Assembly (NCBI GenBank): GCA_965223845.1
Contig: CBDCXR010000004.1
Coordinates: 4,160,001 to 4,224,000, forward strand
DNA length: 64,000 nucleotides
Reading direction: 5' to 3'
From: Planctomycetota bacterium
Lineage (GTDB): Bacteria > Planctomycetota > UBA8108 > SXIK01
The notes beneath the pieces were generated by a model. That model was not told the DNA's origin. It searched no databases and saw nothing but the letters and a program-made list of their open reading frames with translations. Below are positions 3,671 to 15,273 of the stretch, piece after piece; position 1 is the first letter of the stretch; each line of letters begins with the position of its first letter. Position numbers and translations under genes: made by a program.

Positions 3671-3902
3671 ATCGATTCTCGTTCGAGTTCGCATCAAAGT
3701 CGGAATCGCCTTCAGATCAGAATCGGTCGGGACGGAAGACCCGATCGGAAGAGCCATTCTGAACGACGAGTTTGCGCTGTGTCCACCCAAGCTCGGCTTT
3801 ATCTGGAGAAGCCCGCATCGCTCGCGTACGATTTTCTACTCCGGCGATCAAAGAACGACGTTCGCCGTGCCTTTGGACCACTACCGGAGAATCCTCAGCC
3901 CC

Positions 3903-4382
3903 ATGGGAACTCTCATCCACACGAGCCGCTCGACGATTCGAAAGCACACCGGTCCCCACCGAACGGCGCAACTCGAGGCGCTCGAGGAACCGGTCCACTA
4001 CGGCATGCACGGTGGCATCCTCGAACTCTACCGCTCGAAGTACGGGATCGAAGTCGAGCGAGAGTACCCCGCAACGCTCGATCACATGGTCGCTGCGGTC
4101 GGCGGGTGACTGTGTGGCACGCTTGCCGCCGCGCTGGAGGCGCGACAGATCCCCACCACCGACAAGCTCTCCGCCCGCGTCGAGGGCGATATCGAGGACG
4201 TCGACGGAGTGATTCGCATCAGCACGATTCGCATGCACTACGAACTCGAGATCCCGCCGGGAACGAAAGACGCCGCGGAGCGTGCGCTCGCAACGTACGC
4301 CGATCGTTGCCCCGCGTACAAGTCGATCGAAGGGTGCATCAAGGTAGAATCGAGCGCGGCGTTCGCAGAGTCGAGTGCCTGA
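3903..4382 (+). CDS. OsmC-like peroxidase, probable selenoprotein (in-frame TGA at 4107-4109 read as Sec69)
   Basis: ATG3903...DHMVAAVGG-TGA-LCGTLAAALEAR...ADRCPAYKSI...TGA4380-4382, 159 aa. The TGA sits at the OsmC/Ohr peroxidatic Cys position, the resolving CP motif is 67 residues later, and GC3-rich coding continues past the TGA. Confidence 0.85.
4110..4148 (+). promoter_or_regulatory. Candidate bacterial SECIS element
   Basis: CTGT(4110-13)/ACAG(4145-48) basal pairing and an apical stem CGCGC(4130-34)/GCGCG(4140-44) with a TGGAG loop about 26 nt after the UGA. Confidence 0.6.
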
Positions 4383-4402
4383 ACCGACATCGAGCCGTCG
4401 CC

Positions 4403-7400
4403 ATGCGATTCGCTTTTGTCCTCATCGCCTTCGCCTCTTCGTTCGCGAGCCTCCGCGCGCAACCCATCGCGTCGCCGGGCAACCGCTGCACCTATCTCCA
4501 CGATCCGTCGCCGTTCTACGCCGGTCCATCGCTCCCGCGCGTGACCACGCCGATGTGGATCGGCGAAGAGAACGTCGACGCGGCGGTGATCCTCTCGATC
4601 GACGACCTCACGGAGGCTCGCGTCGACCACTACCGTGATTTTCTCGCTCCGATTCTCGCTCGACTAGACGAGATCCAGGGTTACAGCCCCCTCAATATCT
4701 TCACCAACCGCATCGATCCGAGCGATCCGCAGGTCCAGCGCTGGATCGATCAAGGCGTTCGGCTCGACGTCCACACGCGCACTCACCCCTGTCCCTTGAT
4801 GCGCCACGAGATTCCCGCCGCTACGAGCGAGGTGTTCGACTGTCTCTCGAACTTGAACGCCGTGCCGAATCACTTCGCGAATGCGTTTCGGATGCCGTGC
4901 ACGGACTCGATCAACTCGTCGACTCCGCTCTTCTTTCGCGAGATTCTCCCGCAGCGCACGAACGACGGACGATTTCTCGAAGTCGACAGCTCCGTGTCGA
5001 TGTTCCCGGACTCTTCCTACGAAGCCTACGCGCCGTTCCTCAATTACGCCGCGACGATCAGCGAGTATCCGTATCCGTACGTCGTCGGAGGGAACATCTG
5101 GGAGCTCCCGATCGTCGTGCCTACGGACTGGCAGGCACAGCATCGCCGCGGAGTGAATCACCCCCAGACGGTCGCCGAGGTCAAGCGCGCGTTCGACATC
5201 GTGATCGAAGCGAAGGGTCTCTACACGTGGTGCTTTCACCCGCACGGCTGGATCCGCAATACGCAGATCATCGAGGTGATCGACCACGTACGATCCCGCT
5301 ACGGCGCGCGGGTGAAGTTCCTCAATATCCAGGAGACGCTCGAACGACTGACGGAACACATGCTCGGTGGAGTCGCGCTCCGCGACGCCGATGGCTCCGA
5401 TGGCGGCGTCCGCCTCGTCGACATCGATGGCGACGGGAGGATGGACGTCGTCGTCGGAAACGATGCCCGCCGCGAGACGCGGGTTTGGCATTCGGAGTCC
5501 CGCACTTGGCGAACCGTGCCGTTTCCGTTTTCGATCGTCCGCGGACAAGGGTCGGCAAAGCGGGCGACGGGCGTCGAGTTCGGGGTTTTTCGCGCCGACG
5601 GAAAGATCTCGGCTCTGCTCGCGACGAAGAACGGCTCGACCTTCGCACACTTCGACGGGGAGCAGTGGACCCGTCAGCCGGCCCTCGGGCTCGTCGTCGA
5701 CGGAAAGCAGGTCGTCGGCAGAGACGACGGCCGTGACCGCGGGCTCCGCCTACGCGATGTCGACGGCGACGGGTACTCCGATGCGATCGTCAACAACGAC
5801 TCGCAAAACTTGATTTTTCGTTGGAACCCGCGGGAACGCGAATTCGAACGTCTCGCGAGTGTGCTCCCGGCGCTCGCTGCCGTCGTGGACGCCGAGGGAC
5901 GCGACGGCGGACTTCGCTTTTGGGACGTCGATCGAGACGGCGATGACGATCTCGTGCTATCGAACGATCGCGAGTACTTCGTCTATCTCTACGAGGATGC
6001 GACGAAAACCTGGTCGACGCGAGTTCTCCACGGGAGCTCCGGCGCTCCCGGCGCGCTACCGAAGATCACGAGTCGTGGCGAAGACCGCGGCGCTTGGTTC
6101 AAGGACACGACGCTCTACGTCGCCAACACCGCGACGGCCGGTCGGCCGAATCTCGTCGAGACTCGAGACTTCGCACAGCTCCTAGAGCACCGCGCGACTC
6201 CACCCAAGTCGCCCGAGGAGGCGCGCGCAACTCTCCGCGTTCCCGATGGATTCCGAGTCGAGCTCGTCGCCTCGGAGCCTCTCATCGCGGATCCGGTTTC
6301 CGTCGAGTTCGGTGCCGACGGGCGCGTCTGGGTTGCGGAGATGGGCTCGTACCCGCTCGGTCGCGGCGAAGAGGCGGACGGCCGGATCCGCGTTCTCCGC
6401 GATACGGACGGCGACGGCCGTCTCGACCAGAGCACTGTCTTCGCACACGGTCTCAGCTTCCCCGCCGGAGCGCTTCCGTTTCGCGGAGGTGTTCTCGTCA
6501 CGTGCGCGCCGAACATCTACTACTTCGAAGATCGAAACGGCGACGATCGAGCGGACTCGCGCGAGATCATCTTCTCGGGCTTCGGCGAAGGCAACCAGCA
6601 GCACCGGGTCAACGGCCTCCACTACGGAATCGACAACTGGATTTACGGTGCGAACGGCGACAGCGGCGGCACGATCCGCTCGGCGCGTGCCCCCGACCGT
6701 CCCGCGCTTCACCTCGGTGGACGCGACTTCCGCTTTCGCAAAGACCTCACCACCTTCGAAGCCGCGACCGGTCGCACGCAGTTCGGACTCGCGATGGACG
6801 ATTTCGGGCGGCGCTACGGTACGAGCAACTCGCGTCACATCCTCTACGCGGTCCTTCCCGATCGCTATCTCGGTCGAAATCCGCACGTCGCACCACCGAA
6901 CGCCGTCCTCGACATCGCGGAGCACGGCGCCATGGCGCGGATTTATCCGATCTCGAAACAGCTGATCTCGCTCAACTCGATTCACGTTCCGGGTCACTTC
7001 AGCTCTGCGTGCGGAATCTCGATCTACCGCGGCGAGCGATTCCCTCCGTCCTACCGCGGCTCGGCGTTCGTCGCGGATCCCGTCGCGAACCTCGTCCACC
7101 GCGACGTCCTCGTGCCGGACGGAGCCTCGGTGGTTGCACGCCGGAGCGAGAACGAAACGGACTCGGAGTTCCTCGCGTCGACGGACGCCTGGTTTCGCCC
7201 CGTTTACACGACGACCGGACCCGACGGCGCGCTCTACGTGGTCGACATGCACCGCTACATCATCGAGCATCCGGAGTACATCCCGGAGGACTTGCAGCAG
7301 ATTCTCGACTTCGCAGCCGGCCGGGACCGCGGCCGAATCTACCGGGTCGTCTACGCGAGCGCCGATCCGAGATCGGAGGTCGCGCGAATTCCGGTCGCGC

Positions 7401-9553
7401 CATCTCTCGACGCGGAGTCGGATCTCGCCGCGGCGCTCGCGTCCCCGAACGGATGGATCCGCGACACCGCGCAGCGTCTCATCGTTGAACATCGTCCCGC
7501 GGGGATCGCGACCGCGCTGCGCTCGCTCGCTCGCGCGAGCGAGCGAGCGGCGACTCGCATCCACGCGCTCTGGACGCTCGACGCGCTCGGTGCGCTGGAC
7601 GAGTCGATTCTACGGGCCAGCTTCTCCGACCCGAGCGCCGACGTCCGCGAGCACGCCGCGCGGCTCGCCGAATCGCGCATCGATGCGGAACCCGTCTTCA
7701 CCGATGTCGTCGCCCTCACTCGAGATTCGGCGGCGCGCGTTCGCGTGCAGGTCGCGTTCACGCTCGGCGCGTCTTCGCACCCGCTCGCCGGCGTCGCTCT
7801 CGCCGATCTTCTCCGTCGCCACGAGCAGGATCCGTGGCTTCGCGCGGCCGTCTTGAGCTCGAGCCGAACTCACGCCGGCGGGATCCTCGCGGAGCTCGCC
7901 GGGAGCGAAGACGGGCCCTGGACTCTCGAGACGAGCGGCGATCGCGCGGTGTTCAACGCCCTCGTCGCGACCGTGGCGCGCGAGTCGAGCGACGACGCGC
8001 TTCGGCATCTCCTCGCTCGGCTCGATCCGGGCGACGTTCGCCGCGGACATTTCTCGCTCCTCGGCACGCTCGCGACCGCCGCCGGAGCACGACTCGAGAG
8101 AATCGCGAGCGCGAATGCGGACGTGAGCGCCGCCATCGCCGGAACGCGGCGAGCGGCGCGCGAGAAGGCCATCGATCCCTCGGCCGCCCTCGCGCTCCGG
8201 GTCGAAGCGGTCCGAGCGCTCGGCGGAGAGGCTGCCGATCTCGTCGTACTCGAAGCGCTCGTCGCGCCACGAACGCCGAGCGATCTCCAGATCGAAGCTC
8301 TCCGGCTAGTCAAGTCGGCGTCCGAAGACCGTCGCGCCACCGCGGCCGAGTTCCTTCTCGCGCGGTGGGATGCGCTCGGTCCGCGGATCCGCGGTGAAAC
8401 GCTCGAGCTGCTCGTCTCCACTCCGAGCGGGGCCGACCGAATCGCGGCGGCGATCGACGCGCAGCGACTCGATCCCCGCCACGTGAGCTCACCGCTTCGC
8501 TCCCGTTTGCGCGCGAGCGCCTCGCCGGAAGTGCGCGCTCGCCTCGCACGTGCATTCGCGCCGCCGCGAGCATCGTCCCCCGAAGCACACGCGGAGTATC
8601 GCGCGCAAGTTCGCTCTCTCCGCGGAGAAGCGGAGAGCGGGCGCGCGGTGTTCGAAGAGCACTGCTCGAACTGCCATCGTCTCGACGGCCTCGGCTTCGA
8701 CGTCGGTCCGCGGATCGAAGACGCCGCCGTCAAAGGAATCGAGAGCGTCCTCGAAGCGATCTTGGCACCGGCCGAATTCGTCCCGCCGCGCTACACGCCC
8801 TACATTGTCGAGAGTTCCAGCGGACAGGTCGCCACGGGTCTCATCGCAGAAGAGACCGCGACGAGCGTCCGGCTCGTCCGTCCGGGCGGCGTCACCGAAA
8901 CGATCCTCCGGAGCGATCTCGAATCACTCACCGCCGACGAAGGTTCGCTGATGCCATCCGATCTCGCGGCAGCGATCTCGCCGCAGGCGATGGCGGATCT
9001 TCTCGCCTTCGTCGCGCAGCGACCCGCGAACCTCGACGCACTCGACCCGGAGGCGACTCGGGCCGCGAGTGCGATCGTCGAGGCGAACGCTCACAACGGC
9101 CTCGCGGAGGTGCTCGAGGCGACGGAGATCGCGGATCAGGCGAGCTGGGTCGGTCGCATTCGGATGTCGCTCGCACGCCAGCTCGACGGGAAGCACGCCG
9201 TCGCGTGGAAAACGGATGTGGTCCCCGACTCGCTCGAATCTGCGACGTACTCGTTTCACTTGCCGGTCGCGATGGGCTACGTCAGCCAGCCGAGCGGATC
9301 CTTCACCCTCCACGTCGGCGAGCGGCGTGTGCTCGAATTCAACGTCACGCTCGAAAGCGCGACGTGGAAGTCGCCCGGAGGCGCCGCGCGACTCGACTAC
9401 TCAGTCCGTGCGCGAAACAGCGAAGATTCGACCGGGATCTTGACCGTCACCGTGCCGATCGGTTGGCTCGAACCGGGCTCCCCCGCGACGCTCCGCGTCA
9501 CCGGATCCAGCACGGGGAGCCGCCGCTGGTTCGGCGTGCTGCCGCTCCGCTGA
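4403..9553 (+). CDS. PVC-type heme-binding (CxxCH) membrane-bound dehydrogenase-like protein with N-terminal polysaccharide-deacetylase-like and FG-GAP regions
   Basis: Signal MRFAFVLIAFASSFA. SIDD...HTRTHP...FRMPC deacetylase-like region, DxDGDG repeats, PPKSPEEA...GFRVELVASEP...WVAEM..YP propeller, GIDNWIY, WFRPV..TGPDGALY.DM, HEAT-like helices, then CSNCH...GP...SLMP cytochrome c. The longer ORF-track start (3779) overlaps the OsmC gene. Confidence 0.88.
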   Translation: MRFAFVLIAFASSFASLRAQPIASPGNRCTYLHDPSPFYAGPSLPRVTTPMWIGEENVDAAVILSIDDLTEARVDHYRDFLAPILARLDEIQGYSPLNIFTNRIDPSDPQVQRWIDQGVRLDVHTRTHPCPLMRHEIPAATSEVFDCLSNLNAVPNHFANAFRMPCTDSINSSTPLFFREILPQRTNDGRFLEVDSSVSMFPDSSYEAYAPFLNYAATISEYPYPYVVGGNIWELPIVVPTDWQAQHRRGVNHPQTVAEVKRAFDIVIEAKGLYTWCFHPHGWIRNTQIIEVIDHVRSRYGARVKFLNIQETLERLTEHMLGGVALRDADGSDGGVRLVDIDGDGRMDVVVGNDARRETRVWHSESRTWRTVPFPFSIVRGQGSAKRATGVEFGVFRADGKISALLATKNGSTFAHFDGEQWTRQPALGLVVDGKQVVGRDDGRDRGLRLRDVDGDGYSDAIVNNDSQNLIFRWNPREREFERLASVLPALAAVVDAEGRDGGLRFWDVDRDGDDDLVLSNDREYFVYLYEDATKTWSTRVLHGSSGAPGALPKITSRGEDRGAWFKDTTLYVANTATAGRPNLVETRDFAQLLEHRATPPKSPEEARATLRVPDGFRVELVASEPLIADPVSVEFGADGRVWVAEMGSYPLGRGEEADGRIRVLRDTDGDGRLDQSTVFAHGLSFPAGALPFRGGVLVTCAPNIYYFEDRNGDDRADSREIIFSGFGEGNQQHRVNGLHYGIDNWIYGANGDSGGTIRSARAPDRPALHLGGRDFRFRKDLTTFEAATGRTQFGLAMDDFGRRYGTSNSRHILYAVLPDRYLGRNPHVAPPNAVLDIAEHGAMARIYPISKQLISLNSIHVPGHFSSACGISIYRGERFPPSYRGSAFVADPVANLVHRDVLVPDGASVVARRSENETDSEFLASTDAWFRPVYTTTGPDGALYVVDMHRYIIEHPEYIPEDLQQILDFAAGRDRGRIYRVVYASADPRSEVARIPVAPSLDAESDLAAALASPNGWIRDTAQRLIVEHRPAGIATALRSLARASERAATRIHALWTLDALGALDESILRASFSDPSADVREHAARLAESRIDAEPVFTDVVALTRDSAARVRVQVAFTLGASSHPLAGVALADLLRRHEQDPWLRAAVLSSSRTHAGGILAELAGSEDGPWTLETSGDRAVFNALVATVARESSDDALRHLLARLDPGDVRRGHFSLLGTLATAAGARLERIASANADVSAAIAGTRRAAREKAIDPSAALALRVEAVRALGGEAADLVVLEALVAPRTPSDLQIEALRLVKSASEDRRATAAEFLLARWDALGPRIRGETLELLVSTPSGADRIAAAIDAQRLDPRHVSSPLRSRLRASASPEVRARLARAFAPPRASSPEAHAEYRAQVRSLRGEAESGRAVFEEHCSNCHRLDGLGFDVGPRIEDAAVKGIESVLEAILAPAEFVPPRYTPYIVESSSGQVATGLIAEETATSVRLVRPGGVTETILRSDLESLTADEGSLMPSDLAAAISPQAMADLLAFVAQRPANLDALDPEATRAASAIVEANAHNGLAEVLEATEIADQASWVGRIRMSLARQLDGKHAVAWKTDVVPDSLESATYSFHLPVAMGYVSQPSGSFTLHVGERRVLEFNVTLESATWKSPGGAARLDYSVRARNSEDSTGILTVTVPIGWLEPGSPATLRVTGSSTGSRRWFGVLPLR

Positions 9554-9668
9554 GGCCCGGGAACCCGTCCCGGAATCGCGCGAGGATGCGGAGATCCCCT
9601 ATAGCGGCGCGGCGCGGCGGGCGGCCAAATAGAGACGGTGCTTCGATGGACCGTGCTCCCGAGCTCCG

Positions 9669-10322
9669 CTAGGAGTCGAGGAACGTCAGCCCCTCACGCA
9701 CAGCGAACTTCGTGAGCTCGGGGAGGCTGTCGATCTGAAGCCGCTCCATGATGTGTTGGCGGTGCGTCTCGACGGTCTTCACGCTGATGTCGAGCACCAG
9801 GGCGATCTGCTTCGTCGTCTTCCCTTCGGCGAGGAGCTGGAGTACTTCGCGCTGACGATCGGTCAGTCCGGCGCCGGCCGTGGCGAACCGCGCCGCCAGC
9901 TTCTCGACGTACGCCTCAGCCCCATCTTCCGTGATGAGCGGACTCAGATAGATTCGACCCGAGAGAACGGTCGCGATGGCCTCGGCAAGCTCTTCGATGG
10001 CGCATTCCTTGAGGACATACCCGCGCGCCCCCGCCTCCATCATGCGATGGATCATCCGCTCTTCGGCATGCATCGAGAGGGCGATGATCTTGACGTGTTC
10101 GCAGGCGCCTCGGATCTGCGTCGTCGCCTCGACGCCGTTGAGGCCCTTCATGGCGACGTCCATGATGGCGACGTCGGGCGAGAGCCTACCTGTCAATTCG
10201 ACGGCCGTACGGCCGTCGGCAGCTTCGCCGACGATAGCGTACTCGTCGCGATCCTCGAACCAGCTCTTCAGCCCGTCGCGAACAATTGCATGGTCATCCA
10301 CCAGCAGGACTCGAGTCGTCAC
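9669..10322 (-). CDS. NarL/LuxR-family two-component response regulator
   Basis: LLVDDH, phosphoacceptor IMDVAM, GYVLK, and C-terminal LTDRQREVLQLLAEGKTTKQIA...SVKTVETHR HTH. Confidence 0.95.
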   Translation of the reverse strand: MTTRVLLVDDHAIVRDGLKSWFEDRDEYAIVGEAADGRTAVELTGRLSPDVAIMDVAMKGLNGVEATTQIRGACEHVKIIALSMHAEERMIHRMMEAGARGYVLKECAIEELAEAIATVLSGRIYLSPLITEDGAEAYVEKLAARFATAGAGLTDRQREVLQLLAEGKTTKQIALVLDISVKTVETHRQHIMERLQIDSLPELTKFAVREGLTFLDS

Positions 10323-10762
10323 TGCGCCGCTCCGTCATCTCTCGGTGGCTCTCCATCACGGATCCGCGCGATCTCGTGCCCACGCGAAGAGCACGCCGAT
10401 TATAGGCGACTGGTCCGTTATTTGCAGAGCGAATCGGAGTCGGCGCACCCCATCGATTTCCCGAACAACAACATCGCCGGCGGGCGTTCGGCGCTGTTCT
10501 CTCCGCCCTCTCTCGGCGGTTAGGCGACGGCCGCTCGAAGTCCCAACCCACGGCCTCGCGGACGACATCGCGAAGCGGACCAACGGAGATTCTGGACGAA
10601 TCGTCGATGATTCGCGACCGAGAAGCCGGCCGAAAGGATCGCCCGTGGTCCGCACCGACGGCCGATCCCGGCGACTTGGACAGGCTCCCATCCCGAGTTC
10701 CTGACGTACGATGTACGTCCTATCGTTCCCCTCGTAGACAAGACTCAAGCGAACGAAACGTC

Positions 10763-11218
10763 ATGCGACTCCCCGATTCCAGCTCAGACCAAAATGGCGT
10801 ACCCGCCGCGTCGCGGCCCGATTCCGAATCGGATCCCGGGAAGCTCGACCAAGTCCGGGACATCCTCCTCGGTCCGCTGATCGACTCGGTCGAGCGCCGA
10901 TTCGACCGTCTCGAAGATGGGATCTCTGAGCTACGGCGCGAAGCGGAAGCCCGGGCGAACGCGATCGAGATGGAGCTGCGCCGCGCCGTCGAGGAGCTGA
11001 GCGAACGCGCAAAGCGGGACGACGCGGATCTCGGCGATCGTCTGACTGCGCTCGGGAGAACGGTCGAGGAGAACCTGAACGCACTCCGAAGCGATCTCGC
11101 GCGTGATTGCGAGAAGATCCGCGCGGCTAAGGTCGATCGAGCTTCCCTCGGGACGCTTCTCCAGCGGGTCGCGGAAGAGGTCGCCCGCGCGGAGGAGCCA
11201 GAGGGTGGAGCGGAATGA
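10763..11218 (+). CDS. Coiled-coil hypothetical protein, first gene of the GTPase/kinase operon
   Basis: LDQVRDILLG...helical heptads...KVDRASLGTLL; ends 10 nt before the next start. Confidence 0.75.
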   Translation: MRLPDSSSDQNGVPAASRPDSESDPGKLDQVRDILLGPLIDSVERRFDRLEDGISELRREAEARANAIEMELRRAVEELSERAKRDDADLGDRLTALGRTVEENLNALRSDLARDCEKIRAAKVDRASLGTLLQRVAEEVARAEEPEGGAE

Positions 11219-11228
11219 GGACGACACC

Positions 11229-13598
11229 GTGAAACCGCTCCAGCCGAAACGACCGACCTCCCCGCGCGCCGAGGGCTCCACGCCGCCGCCGCGCGGCGTC
11301 GACTCGGGCGCGCGTGGGTCGACGCCGGACGCTCGCGGGTCCGCGGAGACGGACGCCGCGTTCGAGCAACTGAGAGAGCTCCTAGCTCCCGACGAACGCC
11401 CGCTCGAAGCCGAAGAGGTCAGCCGCGTTCTCCCCGAAGCCGTCCACCTCCGATCGAAGCGCGATGCGAAGTTGAATCGCGCGCTGACGCCGACGATCGA
11501 GGAGGCGATTCAAGCGTCCGTTCGACGCGATCCGCAGCAGATCGCGACGGCGATCTACCCGGCGCTCGGTCCGGCGATTCGGAAATCGATCACCGAGACA
11601 CTCGCCGGGATGATTCAGTCGCTCAACGAGGCACTCGAGCACAGCGTGAGCCCGCAAGGCATCCGCTGGCGCATCGAGGCGTGGCGAACCGGGCGCCCGT
11701 TCGCCGAAGTCGTGCTGCTCCACACTCTCGTCTATCGCGTCGAGCAGATCTTTTGGATCGAGAGGGCGAGCGGCGTCCTCCTTCAGCACCTCGTCGCTCC
11801 TTCCGTACGCGCGCAGAGCGGCGATCTCGTCTCGGGAATGCTGTCGGCGATCCAGAAGTTCATCGAGGATTCCTTCGACGTCGAGCAAGGCGACACGCTT
11901 CAGTCGCTTCGCGTCGGCGATCTCACGGTGTGGGTCGACGGTGGCTCCCAAACCGTTCTCGCGACGGTGATCCGAGGCAATCCACCGCTCTCGTTTCGAA
12001 GCAAGACCACGGCGACGCTCGAAACCCTCGAAATCGAGCACGGTGCCGCACTCGCGGAGTTCGACGGCGACACCTCGAGCTTCGAAGTCTCGCGCCACGA
12101 GCTGGCGGCGTGTCTCGAGGAGCAGAAGCAGGTCGGCGCCACCGCGAAGAAGGGAAAGATGAAATACGCGCTCGCGCTCATCGCGATCGTCGTCTTGCCG
12201 TTTCTTCTCTGGGGTTTCTTCTCCTGGCGCGAATCCGGACGCTGGTCAGAGCTCCTCGCCGCACTCGATCGAGAGCCGGGGATCCTCGTCACCGAAAGCG
12301 GAAGCGAAGACGGATCACGCTCCATCGCCGGACTCCGCGACCCGCTCGCGCGCGACCCAGCCGAGCTCGCGGCGGCCGTCGGGCTCGATCCGGATGAGAT
12401 TCACTGGCGGTGGATCGATCACGCCGCGAAGGAGTTCGACGAGACGCGCATCCGCGCGGCGCTCGAGTTGCCCCCCTCGGTCGAGATCTCGATCGTCGAC
12501 GGAGCCGTCACCGGCAGCGGCTCGGCGACATCGGACTGGATTCGCGCGGCGCGCGACCGCGCACTCGCCGCCGGCGCACTCAGCGTCGACTTGAGCGGAG
12601 TCGCGGAAAGCGACGCTCACGCGCGCACTCTCGCGCGAGCGCGAAACGTGCTCGATCCTCCCGCGTCGGTCGACTTGCAACTCCGAGAGAACACGCTCGT
12701 TCTCGCCGGACGCGCGCCCGAAGCATGGATCGCCGAAGCGAGCATTCTCGCGCGCGCGATCGACGGCGTCGGCGCGATCGACGCGACGGGGGTCGAGCCG
12801 GCCGATCGCGCCGAACGCATCCTCGCGCGCGTTCACACCGTGCTCCAGCCTCCCCCGAGTGTCACGCTCACGCTCGAGGGTGACGTCGTCGTGGCGTCGG
12901 GTGAGGCCGAGGACGCCTGGATCGAACGGGCGCCGTGGCTCGCGCGTTCGATCGAGGGCGTCAGGTCGTTTCGCGGCGAACGGTTGAGGAGCACCGACCG
13001 CAGCTCGCGCGTCGTGCGCGAGGCTCGACTCGCGCTGCGCGCACCCGCGAGCGTGACGCTCTCGTTCTCCGGGGGCGTCCTCTTCGCTCGTGGTCGCGCC
13101 GCGCACCAATGGATTCTCGAGAGCCGGCGTCTCGCGCCCTTCGTTGCACGGGTCGAGAGTTACGACGATGGTGCTCTCATCGACATCGACGCCGAGGAGT
13201 TCGCCGCGATCAAAGCCGCCATCGAATCGGTGGAGATCTACTTCGAGGCGAACACGATCCGCCTCGCCGAGGGAAGCGAAGCAGGGATTCCGGCGGTCGC
13301 CGCGCGCATCGCGGAGATCGTGCCCGCGGCGGAACGCCTCGCGCTCGAGTTCGAGATCGCCGTCATCGGCCATCTCGACAACGTGGACCAGCGCCCCGTG
13401 CGATCGGAGCTCAGCCGCGCCCGGGCGGCGAAGGTGATCGATCTCCTCGTCGAGACGGGTGTCCCGCGCGATCGGCTGAATCTGCTCGACGCCGGCGCGC
13501 GCCACGCGGCTTCGGCGGACGCCGACGCGAGTCGGCGACGACGGGTTTCTTTCGAGGTGTCGACGCGTGGAGCGACGGGCGACGCATCCCGGCCATGA
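11229..13598 (+). CDS. Membrane protein: cytoplasmic domain, TM helix, four BON-like repeats, C-terminal OmpA-like domain
   Basis: TM ALALIAIVVLPFLLWGFF; four repeats of type L.PP.SV.L......L...G.A...WI; C-terminal IYFE...IGH.D.....ELSRARA..V...L...GV...RRRVSF. ATGA overlap with the GTPase gene. Confidence 0.82.
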   Translation: MKPLQPKRPTSPRAEGSTPPPRGVDSGARGSTPDARGSAETDAAFEQLRELLAPDERPLEAEEVSRVLPEAVHLRSKRDAKLNRALTPTIEEAIQASVRRDPQQIATAIYPALGPAIRKSITETLAGMIQSLNEALEHSVSPQGIRWRIEAWRTGRPFAEVVLLHTLVYRVEQIFWIERASGVLLQHLVAPSVRAQSGDLVSGMLSAIQKFIEDSFDVEQGDTLQSLRVGDLTVWVDGGSQTVLATVIRGNPPLSFRSKTTATLETLEIEHGAALAEFDGDTSSFEVSRHELAACLEEQKQVGATAKKGKMKYALALIAIVVLPFLLWGFFSWRESGRWSELLAALDREPGILVTESGSEDGSRSIAGLRDPLARDPAELAAAVGLDPDEIHWRWIDHAAKEFDETRIRAALELPPSVEISIVDGAVTGSGSATSDWIRAARDRALAAGALSVDLSGVAESDAHARTLARARNVLDPPASVDLQLRENTLVLAGRAPEAWIAEASILARAIDGVGAIDATGVEPADRAERILARVHTVLQPPPSVTLTLEGDVVVASGEAEDAWIERAPWLARSIEGVRSFRGERLRSTDRSSRVVREARLALRAPASVTLSFSGGVLFARGRAAHQWILESRRLAPFVARVESYDDGALIDIDAEEFAAIKAAIESVEIYFEANTIRLAEGSEAGIPAVAARIAEIVPAAERLALEFEIAVIGHLDNVDQRPVRSELSRARAAKVIDLLVETGVPRDRLNLLDAGARHAASADADASRRRRVSFEVSTRGATGDASRP

Positions 13599-14095
13599 TC
13601 AAGAAGAAGATCTGCATGCTCGGGGCCTTCGCCGTCGGCAAGACGAGCCTCGTCAGCCGGTACGTGGAGAGCCTGTTTTCCGAAGACTACCTGACGACGG
13701 TCGGCGTCAAGGTCGATACGCGCCTTCTCGTAGTCCGCGGCATGGAGGTCCAGCTCGTCATTTGGGACATCGCCGGTGAAGATGACGTTCACCAGATCAA
13801 CCTCGCTTACCTGCGCGGAGCGAGCGGATACCTCGTCGTCGTCGACGGTACCCGCCCCGAGACGGTCGATGTCGCGCTCGAAATCCTCGAGCGGTCCGCC
13901 GACACGGTGGGTGCGCTCCCCCACATCGTGTGCGTGAACAAGAGCGATCTCGACGATGACTGGGCGATCGATCGCGACTCGCTCGCAGCAAAAGGCGTCG
14001 AGGACTTCGTTCGCGTGAGCGCGAAGACGGGCGAGGGCGTCGAGAGAGCGTTCGAACGTCTCGCGGAGCTCATGATCGAAGGGATGAGGTCGTGA
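13595..14095 (+). CDS. Rab-like small GTPase (prokaryotic Ras superfamily, Rup-type)
   Basis: G1 GAFAVGKT, G2 YLTTVG, G3 WDIAG, YLRGA, G4 NKSD, G5 SAK; 166 aa, no C-terminal lipidation motif. Confidence 0.93.
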   Translation: MIKKKICMLGAFAVGKTSLVSRYVESLFSEDYLTTVGVKVDTRLLVVRGMEVQLVIWDIAGEDDVHQINLAYLRGASGYLVVVDGTRPETVDVALEILERSADTVGALPHIVCVNKSDLDDDWAIDRDSLAAKGVEDFVRVSAKTGEGVERAFERLAELMIEGMRS

Positions 14096-15273
14096 TCCAG
14101 TCGCACGAACCCCTCGCTCAGTTTCTCTCGCACCTCGCGGAACGTGATCGCTCGGTCGTCTACCTCCGCACCGATCGCGAAGGACGTCTCCGCGAGAAGC
14201 GAGGAGACGTCGAGCGGTACGGTCTCGCCGATCTCGAGGTCGGCACACCGGTTCAGTCGCGAGTCGCCGCGCTCCTCGGCTCCGTTCCGCTCGGCGGCGA
14301 GCCCGGGTGCCTGCCGCTCGTCGAGCTTCACCCCGGAGCGATCGTCGACATCCATCTGGTCCCGGATGTGCGAGACGACTGGATCGTCCTCATCGACTCG
14401 TCCACGGAGGCGCAGCGCCGGCGCGCGATCCAGCAGGAGCAGCACGACCTCGCGCTCGCGCGCGCGAAGCTGCGCCGACTCTCCGCGGAGCTCGATTCGC
14501 GCTCGGTCGACGAGGTCGGCGCCGGGTCGGACGCGCGTTCGCCGGGGCGAGAGTTCGATCGCGAAAGTGGAAGCGCGCCAGTGGAGAGCCCGGACGATTC
14601 CGACTCCGAGCTCCTCGCGTACGAACGCCGTCTCCGGCGCCTCGCGCTCGACCTCGCTCGAGCCGAGGAGGCGGAGCGACGGCGAATCGCGGTCGGTCTC
14701 CACGACGACGTCGGTCAGCTTCTCGCGGCGACGCGGATGAAGGTGTCGCTCCTCCGGGAACGCGCGTCCGAGGAGCGAGTGCGGTCTCTCGCCGAGGAGG
14801 TCGCGGATCTACTCTCGAGTGTCATCCGGCACACCCGCAGTCTCACGTTCGAACTCGGCTCGCCACTCGTTCGGGACGCCGGTCTTCGAGCTGGGCTGGC
14901 GAAGCTGGCCGCAGATGTGGACGAGCGCGGCCCGTTCTCCGTGACGTTCCATGCTCCCGGGGAGATCCCCGAACCGACCGAAGAGATCCGAATCCTCGTC
15001 TACCAGGCCGTCCGCGAGCTACTGTTCAACGCGACGAAACACTCGGAAGCGCGCCGCGCTGCGGTCGAGGTTGCCGTAAGCGCGGGGACGATCGAAATCT
15101 GTGTGAGAGACGACGGCGTCGGCTTTCGTCCTTCCCGCCTCGAGAACCGCGACACCCGCGGGTTCGGCCTCACATATCTCCGTGAACGGCTCGACGAGCT
15201 GAACATCGATTTCTCGGTCCGTTCGGCTCCCGGCGAAGGCACGCGCGCTCGTCTTCGGATACCGACCGACTGA
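14092..15273 (+). CDS. Cytoplasmic sensor histidine kinase (HisKA_3 + HATPase_c) with N-terminal PAS-like region
   Basis: ERRRIAVGLHDDVGQ H-box, RELLFNATKHS N-box, VRDDGVGF, GFGL, GEGT; no TM segment; GTGA overlap with the GTPase stop. Confidence 0.92.
   Translation: MIQSHEPLAQFLSHLAERDRSVVYLRTDREGRLREKRGDVERYGLADLEVGTPVQSRVAALLGSVPLGGEPGCLPLVELHPGAIVDIHLVPDVRDDWIVLIDSSTEAQRRRAIQQEQHDLALARAKLRRLSAELDSRSVDEVGAGSDARSPGREFDRESGSAPVESPDDSDSELLAYERRLRRLALDLARAEEAERRRIAVGLHDDVGQLLAATRMKVSLLRERASEERVRSLAEEVADLLSSVIRHTRSLTFELGSPLVRDAGLRAGLAKLAADVDERGPFSVTFHAPGEIPEPTEEIRILVYQAVRELLFNATKHSEARRAAVEVAVSAGTIEICVRDDGVGFRPSRLENRDTRGFGLTYLRERLDELNIDFSVRSAPGEGTRARLRIPTD

Follow-up and report, generated by a model that had tools for sequence, protein, structure and literature searches.

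Within a 64,000-nucleotide stretch of planctomycete DNA (the window; contig CBDCXR010000004.1 of assembly GCA_965223845.1), we analysed the locus at positions 9669-15273, which holds five genes built around a small GTPase. A gene for a NarL/FixJ-type response regulator (217 aa, P0155; 9669-10322, minus strand) is followed by a divergent intergenic region of 440 nt (10323-10762) and then by four genes on the plus strand, which encode, in this order, a soluble coiled-coil protein (151 aa, P0004; 10763-11218), a single-pass inner-membrane protein with a cytoplasmic N-terminus (789 aa, P0001; 11229-13598), the small GTPase (166 aa, P0002; 13595-14095), and a soluble HisKA_3 histidine kinase (393 aa, P0003; 14092-15273). 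An earlier note on this DNA had described four co-oriented genes with a divergent NarL regulator, and all five were found where it had placed them, confirmed by coordinates and Pfam domains. The overlaps that it had read between the genes were borne out in part. An ATGA joins the stop of the membrane-protein gene to the start of the GTPase gene at 13595-13598, and a GTGA joins the stop of the GTPase gene to the start of the kinase gene at 14092-14095; the ATGA proposed between the coiled-coil and membrane-protein genes is not usable, as ATG 11215 lies out of the membrane-protein frame and reaches a stop after five codons. The membrane-protein frame starts at GTG 11229, 10 nt past the coiled-coil stop, or alternatively at GTG 11205, and the former was chosen because GAGG lies 7 nt upstream of it. 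The cassette is present in a single copy in the window's genome. From its domain content, motifs and gene context, we identify the locus with high confidence as a complete Group 1 Rup small-GTPase system.

The Rup family and its Group 1 were defined by comparative genomics by Wuichet and Sogaard-Andersen in 2014 (PMC4316618). As the main text of that paper describes it, the Group 1 neighbourhood comprises a cytoplasmic coiled-coil protein, a protein combining an unknown domain, a membrane helix and an OmpA domain, a GTPase lacking the G3 glutamine, and an output protein in whose N-terminal part a glutamine is invariant, the outputs named being diguanylate cyclase/phosphodiesterase fusions or histidine kinases. 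The authors proposed that the glutamine comes in trans from a GTPase-activating protein (GAP), and a mode of action similar to that of the actinobacterial conservon. They also report transcription of the gene in Nostoc punctiforme. The Group 1 clade is presented there as the closest bacterial relative of eukaryotic Rab/Ras/Rho/Ran. According to the same paper, no Rup protein had been characterised, and our literature search on Rup GTPases found no experimental study and no later work after PMC4316618. The window locus has all four conserved components of Group 1, with E62 in place of the G3 glutamine and Q115 in the kinase's N-terminal adapter; its GTPase is single-domain (criterion, at most 240 aa) with G1-G5 present, and it holds no MglB/Roadblock gene (no Robl_LC7 among the five proteins). 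Its output differs, in that a HisKA_3 kinase is here paired with a NarL-type regulator. The novelty that the earlier note had attached to the locus did not survive this comparison, because PMC4316618 already contains this four-gene system and a hypothesis of the same kind, with the glutamine given in trans by a GAP. The Group 1 phyla named in its main text are Bacteroidetes, Chloroflexi, Cyanobacteria and Gammaproteobacteria, and members from Sorangium cellulosum and Mesorhizobium loti are named elsewhere in the paper. Planctomycetes do not appear in that main text, and its supplementary tables may list planctomycete or acidobacterial members and other outputs.

The GTPase matched Pfam Ras (5.1e-28) and Roc (2.1e-21) as a single domain of 166 aa. 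The motifs G1 (G10...G15-K16-T17), G2 (T35), G3 (D58-x-x-G61), G4 (N115-K116-x-D118) and G5 (S142-A143-K144) were all read in its sequence, as were the segments VGVKV, QLVIWD, YLRGA and VVVDGT, in agreement with the earlier description. G3 reads WDIAG and is followed by E62 in place of the catalytic Gln, and Phe (F12) occupies the position of Ras Gly12. Across 83 homologues, G1 and NKxD were conserved in all 83, WDxxG in 82 and T35 in 79, and the residue after G3 was Glu in 58, Ala in 9, Thr in 6 and Gln in 2. GTPases from Nostoc and Calothrix loci with the same gene context are 44-55% identical to the window protein. In eukaryotic Rab proteins DxxG is followed by a catalytic Gln, and the C-terminus carries a Cys prenylation motif. 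The label 'Rab-like' given to the window GTPase holds for its sequence similarity, at the level of fold and family only, as the closest proteins of solved structure are Rabs (Rab23, 6.6e-22; 214 PDB sequences at E ≤ 1e-10), and fails for these two features, since E62 stands where the G3 Gln would be and the C-terminus has no Cys and no prenylation motif. Among 30 longer homologues, 10 carry a TIR_2 fusion (P0125, P0126, P0135-P0137, P0139-P0141, P0147, P0149) and two a fused protein kinase domain (P0138, P0150). The close homologues fused in these ways share 42-51% identity, and the fusions indicate that the GTPase clade is used in other contexts too, possibly in defence. Two genomes, G083 (L097, G083:C54) and G122, have two Group 1 Rup GTPase genes each, and both genes of G083 lie within about 5 kb of the membrane-protein gene.

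The membrane protein has a single hydrophobic segment, the transmembrane helix at residues 313-332 (12165-12224; KD19 maximum 2.45), and five Lys are found within the 14 residues that precede it. This Lys-rich N-terminal flank places the N-terminus inside and the first ~310 residues in the cytoplasm. A conserved cytoplasmic domain, delimited by homologue conservation, spans residues ~40-310 (11346-12158). On the periplasmic side lie four BON-like repeats of ~63 aa (12429-13223), which have one motif in common (at residues 415, 477, 541 and 606) and similar sequence on either side of it, and an OmpA-like peptidoglycan-associating domain at the C-terminus (residues 693-772; 13305-13544). Of the BON/OmpA architecture proposed before, the OmpA part passed its Pfam cut-off (3.9e-8, 34 bits vs 27.2) and the BON part did not (E 0.004, 17.8 bits vs 27). 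The number of repeats differs among membrane-protein homologues of 442-915 aa. Matches in NCBIfam were of the MotB/YiaD/TssL type, all far under the equivalog cut-offs.

More than 2,400 proteins from Acidobacteriota, Planctomycetota and Verrucomicrobiota, which bear no other name than 'OmpA family', share ~50% identity with the cytoplasmic domain, and its profile retrieved 6,224 cluster representatives among 1.84 billion (E ≤ 1e-3), of which 2,365 passed E ≤ 1e-30. No Pfam family includes the domain; Pfam and NCBIfam searches at lax thresholds returned scattered noise, and PDB sequence searches with alignments of this domain and of the kinase adapter gave nothing under E 0.08. A Roadblock or longin fold was considered for the domain, and weak Pfam hints of it were not borne out by profile comparison: 4 of 32 members had sub-threshold matches (Fuz_longin_1 in two, best E 0.025; Robl_LC7 in two, best E 0.11), hhalign against 30 Roadblock sequences gave P = 0.27 with 0.16 for the control of GTPase against Roadblock, and comparison with a single Roadblock sequence gave a profile probability of 0.4%. 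Homologues P0304, P0389 and P0284 are extended at the N-terminus, with 185-256 aa ahead of the conserved domain, and none of the coiled-coil, adapter and GTPase profile hidden Markov models (HMMs) matched these extensions. None of the 150 best membrane-domain proteins carried a coiled-coil, adapter or GTPase domain.

The first gene of the operon was assigned by synteny and family consensus. Its product gave only a weak Pfam match of the Apolipoprotein type (E 0.001, 19 bits vs a cut-off of 90) and has no hydrophobic segment by hydropathy. The family has an N-terminal motif with the consensus DKIRDILFG in 73 sequences, which reads LDQVRDILLG in the window protein and is followed by long helical heptad-like sequence. 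The label 'coiled coil' is based on this heptad-like helical sequence and on the weak Apolipoprotein-type match, not on a coiled-coil predictor. ATG 10607 is an alternative start, giving 203 aa. BLASTP found no similarity between this protein and the N-terminus of the membrane protein; a short N-terminal motif shared by the two was seen by eye only.

With the membrane protein's cytoplasmic domain as anchor, we collected 80 loci from species-representative genomes and located the homologues of the window proteins therein; the phyla include Acidobacteriota, Cyanobacteria, Zetaproteobacteria, Desulfobacterota and Planctomycetota. A GTPase gene, with products 40-55% identical to the window GTPase, lies directly downstream of the membrane-protein gene on the same strand in 65 of the 80 loci and at another place of the locus in 6; the remaining 9 yielded none, and 6 of these have less than 2 kb of sequence downstream. 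Directly upstream of the membrane-protein gene stands a coiled-coil homologue in 72 of the 80. The conserved synteny on which the earlier reading depended was found, the order coiled-coil, membrane protein, GTPase and adapter-output being kept across many phyla, and chance juxtaposition of the genes is excluded on this ground. Of 301 genomes sampled from the window's phylum, 12 had the membrane domain, 12 the GTPase and 11 both, with G216 having the membrane protein only and G253 the GTPase only. At L103, the locus of G216 and the closest relative sampled, the coiled-coil/membrane pair is followed by a gene for a low-molecular-weight phosphotyrosine phosphatase instead of the GTPase. Mirror-tree distance correlations over 65 loci were r = 0.67 for membrane domain and GTPase, 0.69 for membrane domain and coiled-coil protein, and 0.52 for GTPase and coiled-coil protein; such correlations are expected from shared descent alone and were not taken as evidence of contact.

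The kinase matched Pfam HisKA_3 (5.6e-10, residues 195-255) and HATPase_c (1.1e-13, residues 301-392) and has no hydrophobic or transmembrane segment (KD19 maximum 1.25), consistent with the earlier description of a soluble HisKA_3 kinase without a membrane sensor. It consists of an adapter, a low-complexity linker, a DHp domain with H204 and an ATPase domain. The adapter occupies the first ~125 residues (residues 1-125; 14092-14466) and had no Pfam, NCBIfam or PDB match. It was delimited by conservation, and HMMs split the adapters of the sampled loci into two types, AD1, the window type (HMM match 1.2e-38), and AD2; at least one of the two is present in 77 of 91 loci, and one further locus has a divergent AD1-like N-terminus in a sigma-54 activator. 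AD1 ends in a helix carrying Q114 and Q115 (Q115 codon, 14434-14436). G38, G63 and Q115 were invariant in 26 of 26 AD1 sequences, and Q115 was near-invariant among 61 open reading frames (ORFs) downstream of the GTPase. In AD2 adapters (n = 45), Gln at the matching place was conserved in at least 95%, so that both types end in a helix with a conserved Gln. Profile comparison of AD1 with AD2 gave P = 0.004-0.01, colinear over ~80 columns, which suggests common descent of the two. The end of the adapter resembles, by eye only, a PAS DIT motif with a signalling helix, and no fold is claimed. Comparison of AD1 with PAS domains from the same loci gave P = 0.53, and a Roadblock-like assignment (P = 0.0053 over 36 columns) was too weak to use.

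Behind the adapter stands a wide range of output domains. Pfam matches among the 61 ORFs were PAS in 19, HATPase_c in 12, HisKA in 11, receiver in 9, class III cyclase in 9, Hpt in 9, HD-GYP in 3, and sigma-54 activator and HisKA_3 in one each, the HisKA_3 match being that of the window locus only. This count omits L022, L027, L035, L077 and L083, where no ORF of at least 100 aa starts between -60 and +400 nt of the GTPase end; for L073 the second candidate ORF was used, the adapter being in the first; and mis-picks account for at least three of the 61 (L025 and L026, with the adapter in another ORF, and L030). Two metabolic Pfam matches in the count, amidohydrolase and xylose-isomerase-like, are probably mis-picked ORFs. 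Compared with the outputs named in the main text of PMC4316618, the sampled loci add class III cyclase, HD-GYP, PAS-only and adapter-only outputs, and the description of Group 1 there makes no mention of AD1/AD2 subtypes, which often occur in one locus.

Many loci carry both AD1 and AD2, as two genes or in tandem. AD1-AD2 tandems within one protein, for example before HD-GYP, were seen at L044:3301-4941, L080:9325-10809, L101, L102, L105 and L051, and indicate that the subtypes are used together and not as alternatives. In the cyanobacterial loci L041, L046, L049, L052, L055, L056, L065, L072 and L075, the GTPase is followed by an adapter-only AD1 protein of 125-137 aa and, after it, a separate AD2 protein of ~375 aa (~9120-10730 in most of these loci). 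Adapter-only homologues numbered 183, nearly all named 'hypothetical' (two were otherwise named) and none with a Pfam domain. In the Desulfobacterota locus L016 (1478-3452), and also in L033 and L042, the GTPase gene is divergent from the coiled-coil and membrane-protein genes and is followed by a sigma-54 activator with an AD1-like N-terminus.

Several fusion proteins came up in these searches and were not used as contact evidence. They are P0052, which joins an AD1 adapter (39% identity to the kinase N-terminus, E 2e-24) to a membrane protein; P0128 (GTPase-AD2); P0127 (GTPase, Gln-Gln helix, PAS, kinase); and the membrane protein-GTPase fusions P0129, P0131, P0132 and P0134, in which a periplasmic OmpA domain followed by a cytoplasmic GTPase makes no topological sense. 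The fusions are probable read-through or assembly artefacts, since they are single-member metagenome proteins, several of them with an internal start Met or frameshift-like stretches.

The divergent gene encodes a regulator with Response_reg (7.5e-29) and GerE, a LuxR-type helix-turn-helix (HTH) domain (1.4e-19). Its NCBIfam matches were of the NarL/UvrY/MctR type, every one under the equivalog cut-off. The predicted acceptor is Asp55, and D9/D10, S83 and K105 are present. Regulator orthologues of 52-54% identity, together with a HisKA_3 kinase, adjoin the GTPase in 4 of 11 same-phylum loci, where the kinase is an AD2-HisKA_3 protein 38-41% identical to the window kinase in its catalytic part. 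This recurrent pairing and the Pfam domains uphold the view that the regulator is of the class matching the kinase, and since the pair adjoins the GTPase in those four loci, the divergent regulator is likely the kinase's cognate partner. The window pair has the DHp His (H204), HATPase_c, the receiver acceptor Asp (D55), the GerE HTH and neighbouring genes, and the regulator is the likely phosphotransfer partner predicted for the HisKA_3 kinase. The intergenic region (10323-10762) presumably holds the promoters of both the regulator gene and the operon. No sigma-70-like site was found in it, its one weak terminator-like hairpin was not above shuffled sequences, its repeats are short and imperfect, and Rfam gave no match. 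On the other side of the regulator gene, an ORF of 1,924 aa (3779-9553, plus strand) converges on it and ends 116 nt away. Its translation has repeated DxDGDG-type motifs and a CxxCH haem-binding motif, and by synteny it lies outside the cassette.

Eukaryotic Rab and Rap GAPs give a catalytic residue in trans, the Gln finger of TBC RabGAPs and the Asn thumb of RapGAPs. The window GTPase is nearest to Rabs by sequence and, as in Rap, has no catalytic Gln of its own; the conserved Gln in its adapter partner is a candidate trans residue, an idea put forward first in PMC4316618. It differs from Rab and Rap in lacking a prenylation motif, and its partner kinase contains neither a TBC nor a RapGAP domain. 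With MotB, Pal and YiaD, the window membrane protein shares an inner-membrane anchor and a periplasmic OmpA-like peptidoglycan-binding domain, whereas these families lack its large conserved cytoplasmic domain.

Other bacterial GTPase systems are comparable in part. The conservon (CvnA-D; Komatsu 2006, cited in PMC4316618) comprises an MglA-family GTPase, the Roadblock protein CvnB, CvnC, given in PMC4316618 as a protein with a domain of unknown function, and a membrane-bound kinase. PMC13343842 describes the histidine kinase and small GTPase of conservons (Cvn/AGPS) as one complex whose signal path is still open. Like a conservon as these papers present it, the window locus groups a Ras-superfamily GTPase, a histidine kinase and accessory proteins into one signalling unit; unlike it, the locus has no Roadblock protein (Pfam Robl_LC7), its kinase is soluble, and its membrane component is separate and OmpA-anchored. 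A CvnC-type protein was not evident in the window locus, no CvnC family model having been searched. The MglA/MglB/RomR-RomX system of Myxococcus xanthus likewise links a single-domain Ras-like GTPase to response-regulator-type signalling, and differs in that its GTPase belongs to the MglA family and not to Rup, its GAP is a Roadblock protein, and there is no OmpA-anchored partner. The window's genome also has a second, unrelated small-GTPase module, an MglA-like gene between two Roadblock/LC7 genes (G000:C4:7528700-7530478; L002, L111, L112), ~3.36 Mb away; the MglA-like gene is a weak match to the Rup GTPase (30% identity, E 3.5e-5), and the flanking Roadblock genes matched at E 1.3e-10 and 8.1e-7. 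Of 121 genomes sampled from the phylum, 74 had Roadblock genes.

Taken as a whole, the locus is best explained, with moderate confidence, as a Group 1 Rup system in which a receptor acts through a G protein on a HisKA_3 kinase with a NarL output. The order receptor, G protein, kinase, as the earlier note proposed it, is plausible; the order and chemistry of the individual steps are put forward tentatively, at somewhat less than even confidence. The peptidoglycan-tethered membrane protein would use its cytoplasmic domain, in concert with the coiled-coil protein, to report the state of the envelope, and would change the nucleotide state or the membrane recruitment of the GTPase. The GTP-bound GTPase would then dock on the kinase adapter, whose C-terminal helix is predicted to run into the dimerisation helix of the kinase, so that docking could alter how kinase and phosphatase activity are balanced. 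Gln115 of the adapter may in addition take part in GTP hydrolysis, the effector thus serving as its own timer, and the phosphorylated regulator would change transcription. The combination of a soluble kinase with a portable conserved adapter fits a kinase that takes its input from conserved upstream proteins, and the end of the system marked by the adapter is read as the output side because varied, typically terminal output domains stand behind a constant adapter. The most specific version, in which the membrane protein is the exchange factor and the adapter both the binding site and a GTPase-activating element providing Gln115 in trans, is doubtful in our judgement.

Several observations weigh against this reading. 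Loci L004, L007 and L057, each with at least 4.7 kb of sequence downstream, have the membrane-protein and coiled-coil genes and no GTPase, and in G216, a genome of the same family and 96% complete, the membrane protein is present and the GTPase was not found with the window query. The role of guanine nucleotide exchange factor (GEF) supposed for the cytoplasmic domain is without homology support, because profile comparisons gave no significant fold for it. In cyanobacteria the gene that follows the GTPase encodes an adapter without an output domain, and such adapter-only proteins mean that the adapter is not solely an input module of enzymes. The GTPase of L078 keeps its own G3 Gln, yet its adapter has the conserved Gln as well, and the GTPase-adapter fusion P0128 has both glutamines; for L071, the other sampled GTPase with its own G3 Gln, no adapter was found. 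The trans-glutamine idea thus gets no covariation support, and L078 speaks mildly against simple complementation.

Some of the same observations would suit a spatial switch, in which the GTPase, as with MglA in Myxococcus, mainly governs the position of proteins, its GTP form recruiting adapter-bearing proteins to a scaffold made of the peptidoglycan-anchored membrane protein and the coiled-coil protein. Kinase output would then be altered by local concentration or co-localisation and not by a conformational signal along the adapter helix. The membrane/coiled-coil pair is the most constant part of the loci and can occur without the GTPase, a peptidoglycan-binding anchor gives a fixed position, and a docking platform would suit both the free-standing adapters of 125-137 aa and the many loci with two adapter proteins or an AD1-AD2 tandem. 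However, the adapter is always N-terminal of the output, and its conserved helix continues into the output linker, which is the usual layout of an allosteric input; we consider the spatial switch unlikely, if still the strongest competitor of the receptor-to-kinase cascade. The wiring could also run in reverse, as in a conservon, with the adapter-bearing kinase upstream and in control of the GTPase, and with the GTPase, the coiled-coil protein and the OmpA-anchored membrane protein as an output acting on the envelope. The single complex of kinase and small GTPase in conservons, with its signal path described as open (PMC13343842, PMC4316618), leaves room for this, and the periplasmic part of the membrane protein, made of repeats and OmpA, looks structural. 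The partners of the adapter point the other way, as cyclases, HD-GYP phosphodiesterases, hybrid kinases with Hpt and a sigma-54 activator are typical outputs, and the window kinase has its own DNA-binding regulator, hence a pathway with a transcriptional end point. Reverse wiring appears distinctly improbable.

Least probable by far, and disfavoured, is that the locus is an NTPase-based conflict (anti-phage) system or a set of unrelated neighbours that merely look coupled. The TIR_2 fusions (10/30) and protein kinase fusions (2/30) among GTPase homologues are what could be said for a conflict system, but PADLOC on the five proteins gave generic HTH and coiled-coil matches only and nothing relevant, the locus is single-copy, and the outputs are ordinary regulatory ones. 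That the genes are unrelated neighbours is contradicted by a gene order conserved over many phyla.

The window locus does not offer a new kind of system; it is a further case, from a phylum absent from the main text of PMC4316618, of the kind described in 2014. To that description the present analysis adds the breadth of the family, two adapter subtypes and a wider range of outputs, together with a recurrent HisKA_3/NarL output in the phylum and exceptions to the four-gene pattern. The system is widespread, with 6,224 cluster representatives for the cytoplasmic domain alone, a domain without a Pfam family. One adapter joins kinases, cyclases, HD-GYP enzymes and a sigma-54 activator to the GTPase module, a property that makes it a clear target for interface mapping, and the window copy is convenient for a first test, as its output is a plain kinase-regulator pair in which control by the GTPase could be read as phosphorylation in vitro or transcription in vivo. 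The interest lies in the place of Group 1 Rup proteins as the bacterial proteins most similar to eukaryotic Rab/Ras/Rho/Ran, as put forward in PMC4316618. If the most specific version of the mechanism is true, then, the Group 1 clade being the closest bacterial relative of those families in the same account, the receptor-GEF/effector-GAP logic of eukaryotic small G proteins would already be assembled in bacteria, and one portable adapter, with its subtypes AD1 and AD2, would connect this logic to two-component and cyclic-nucleotide outputs.

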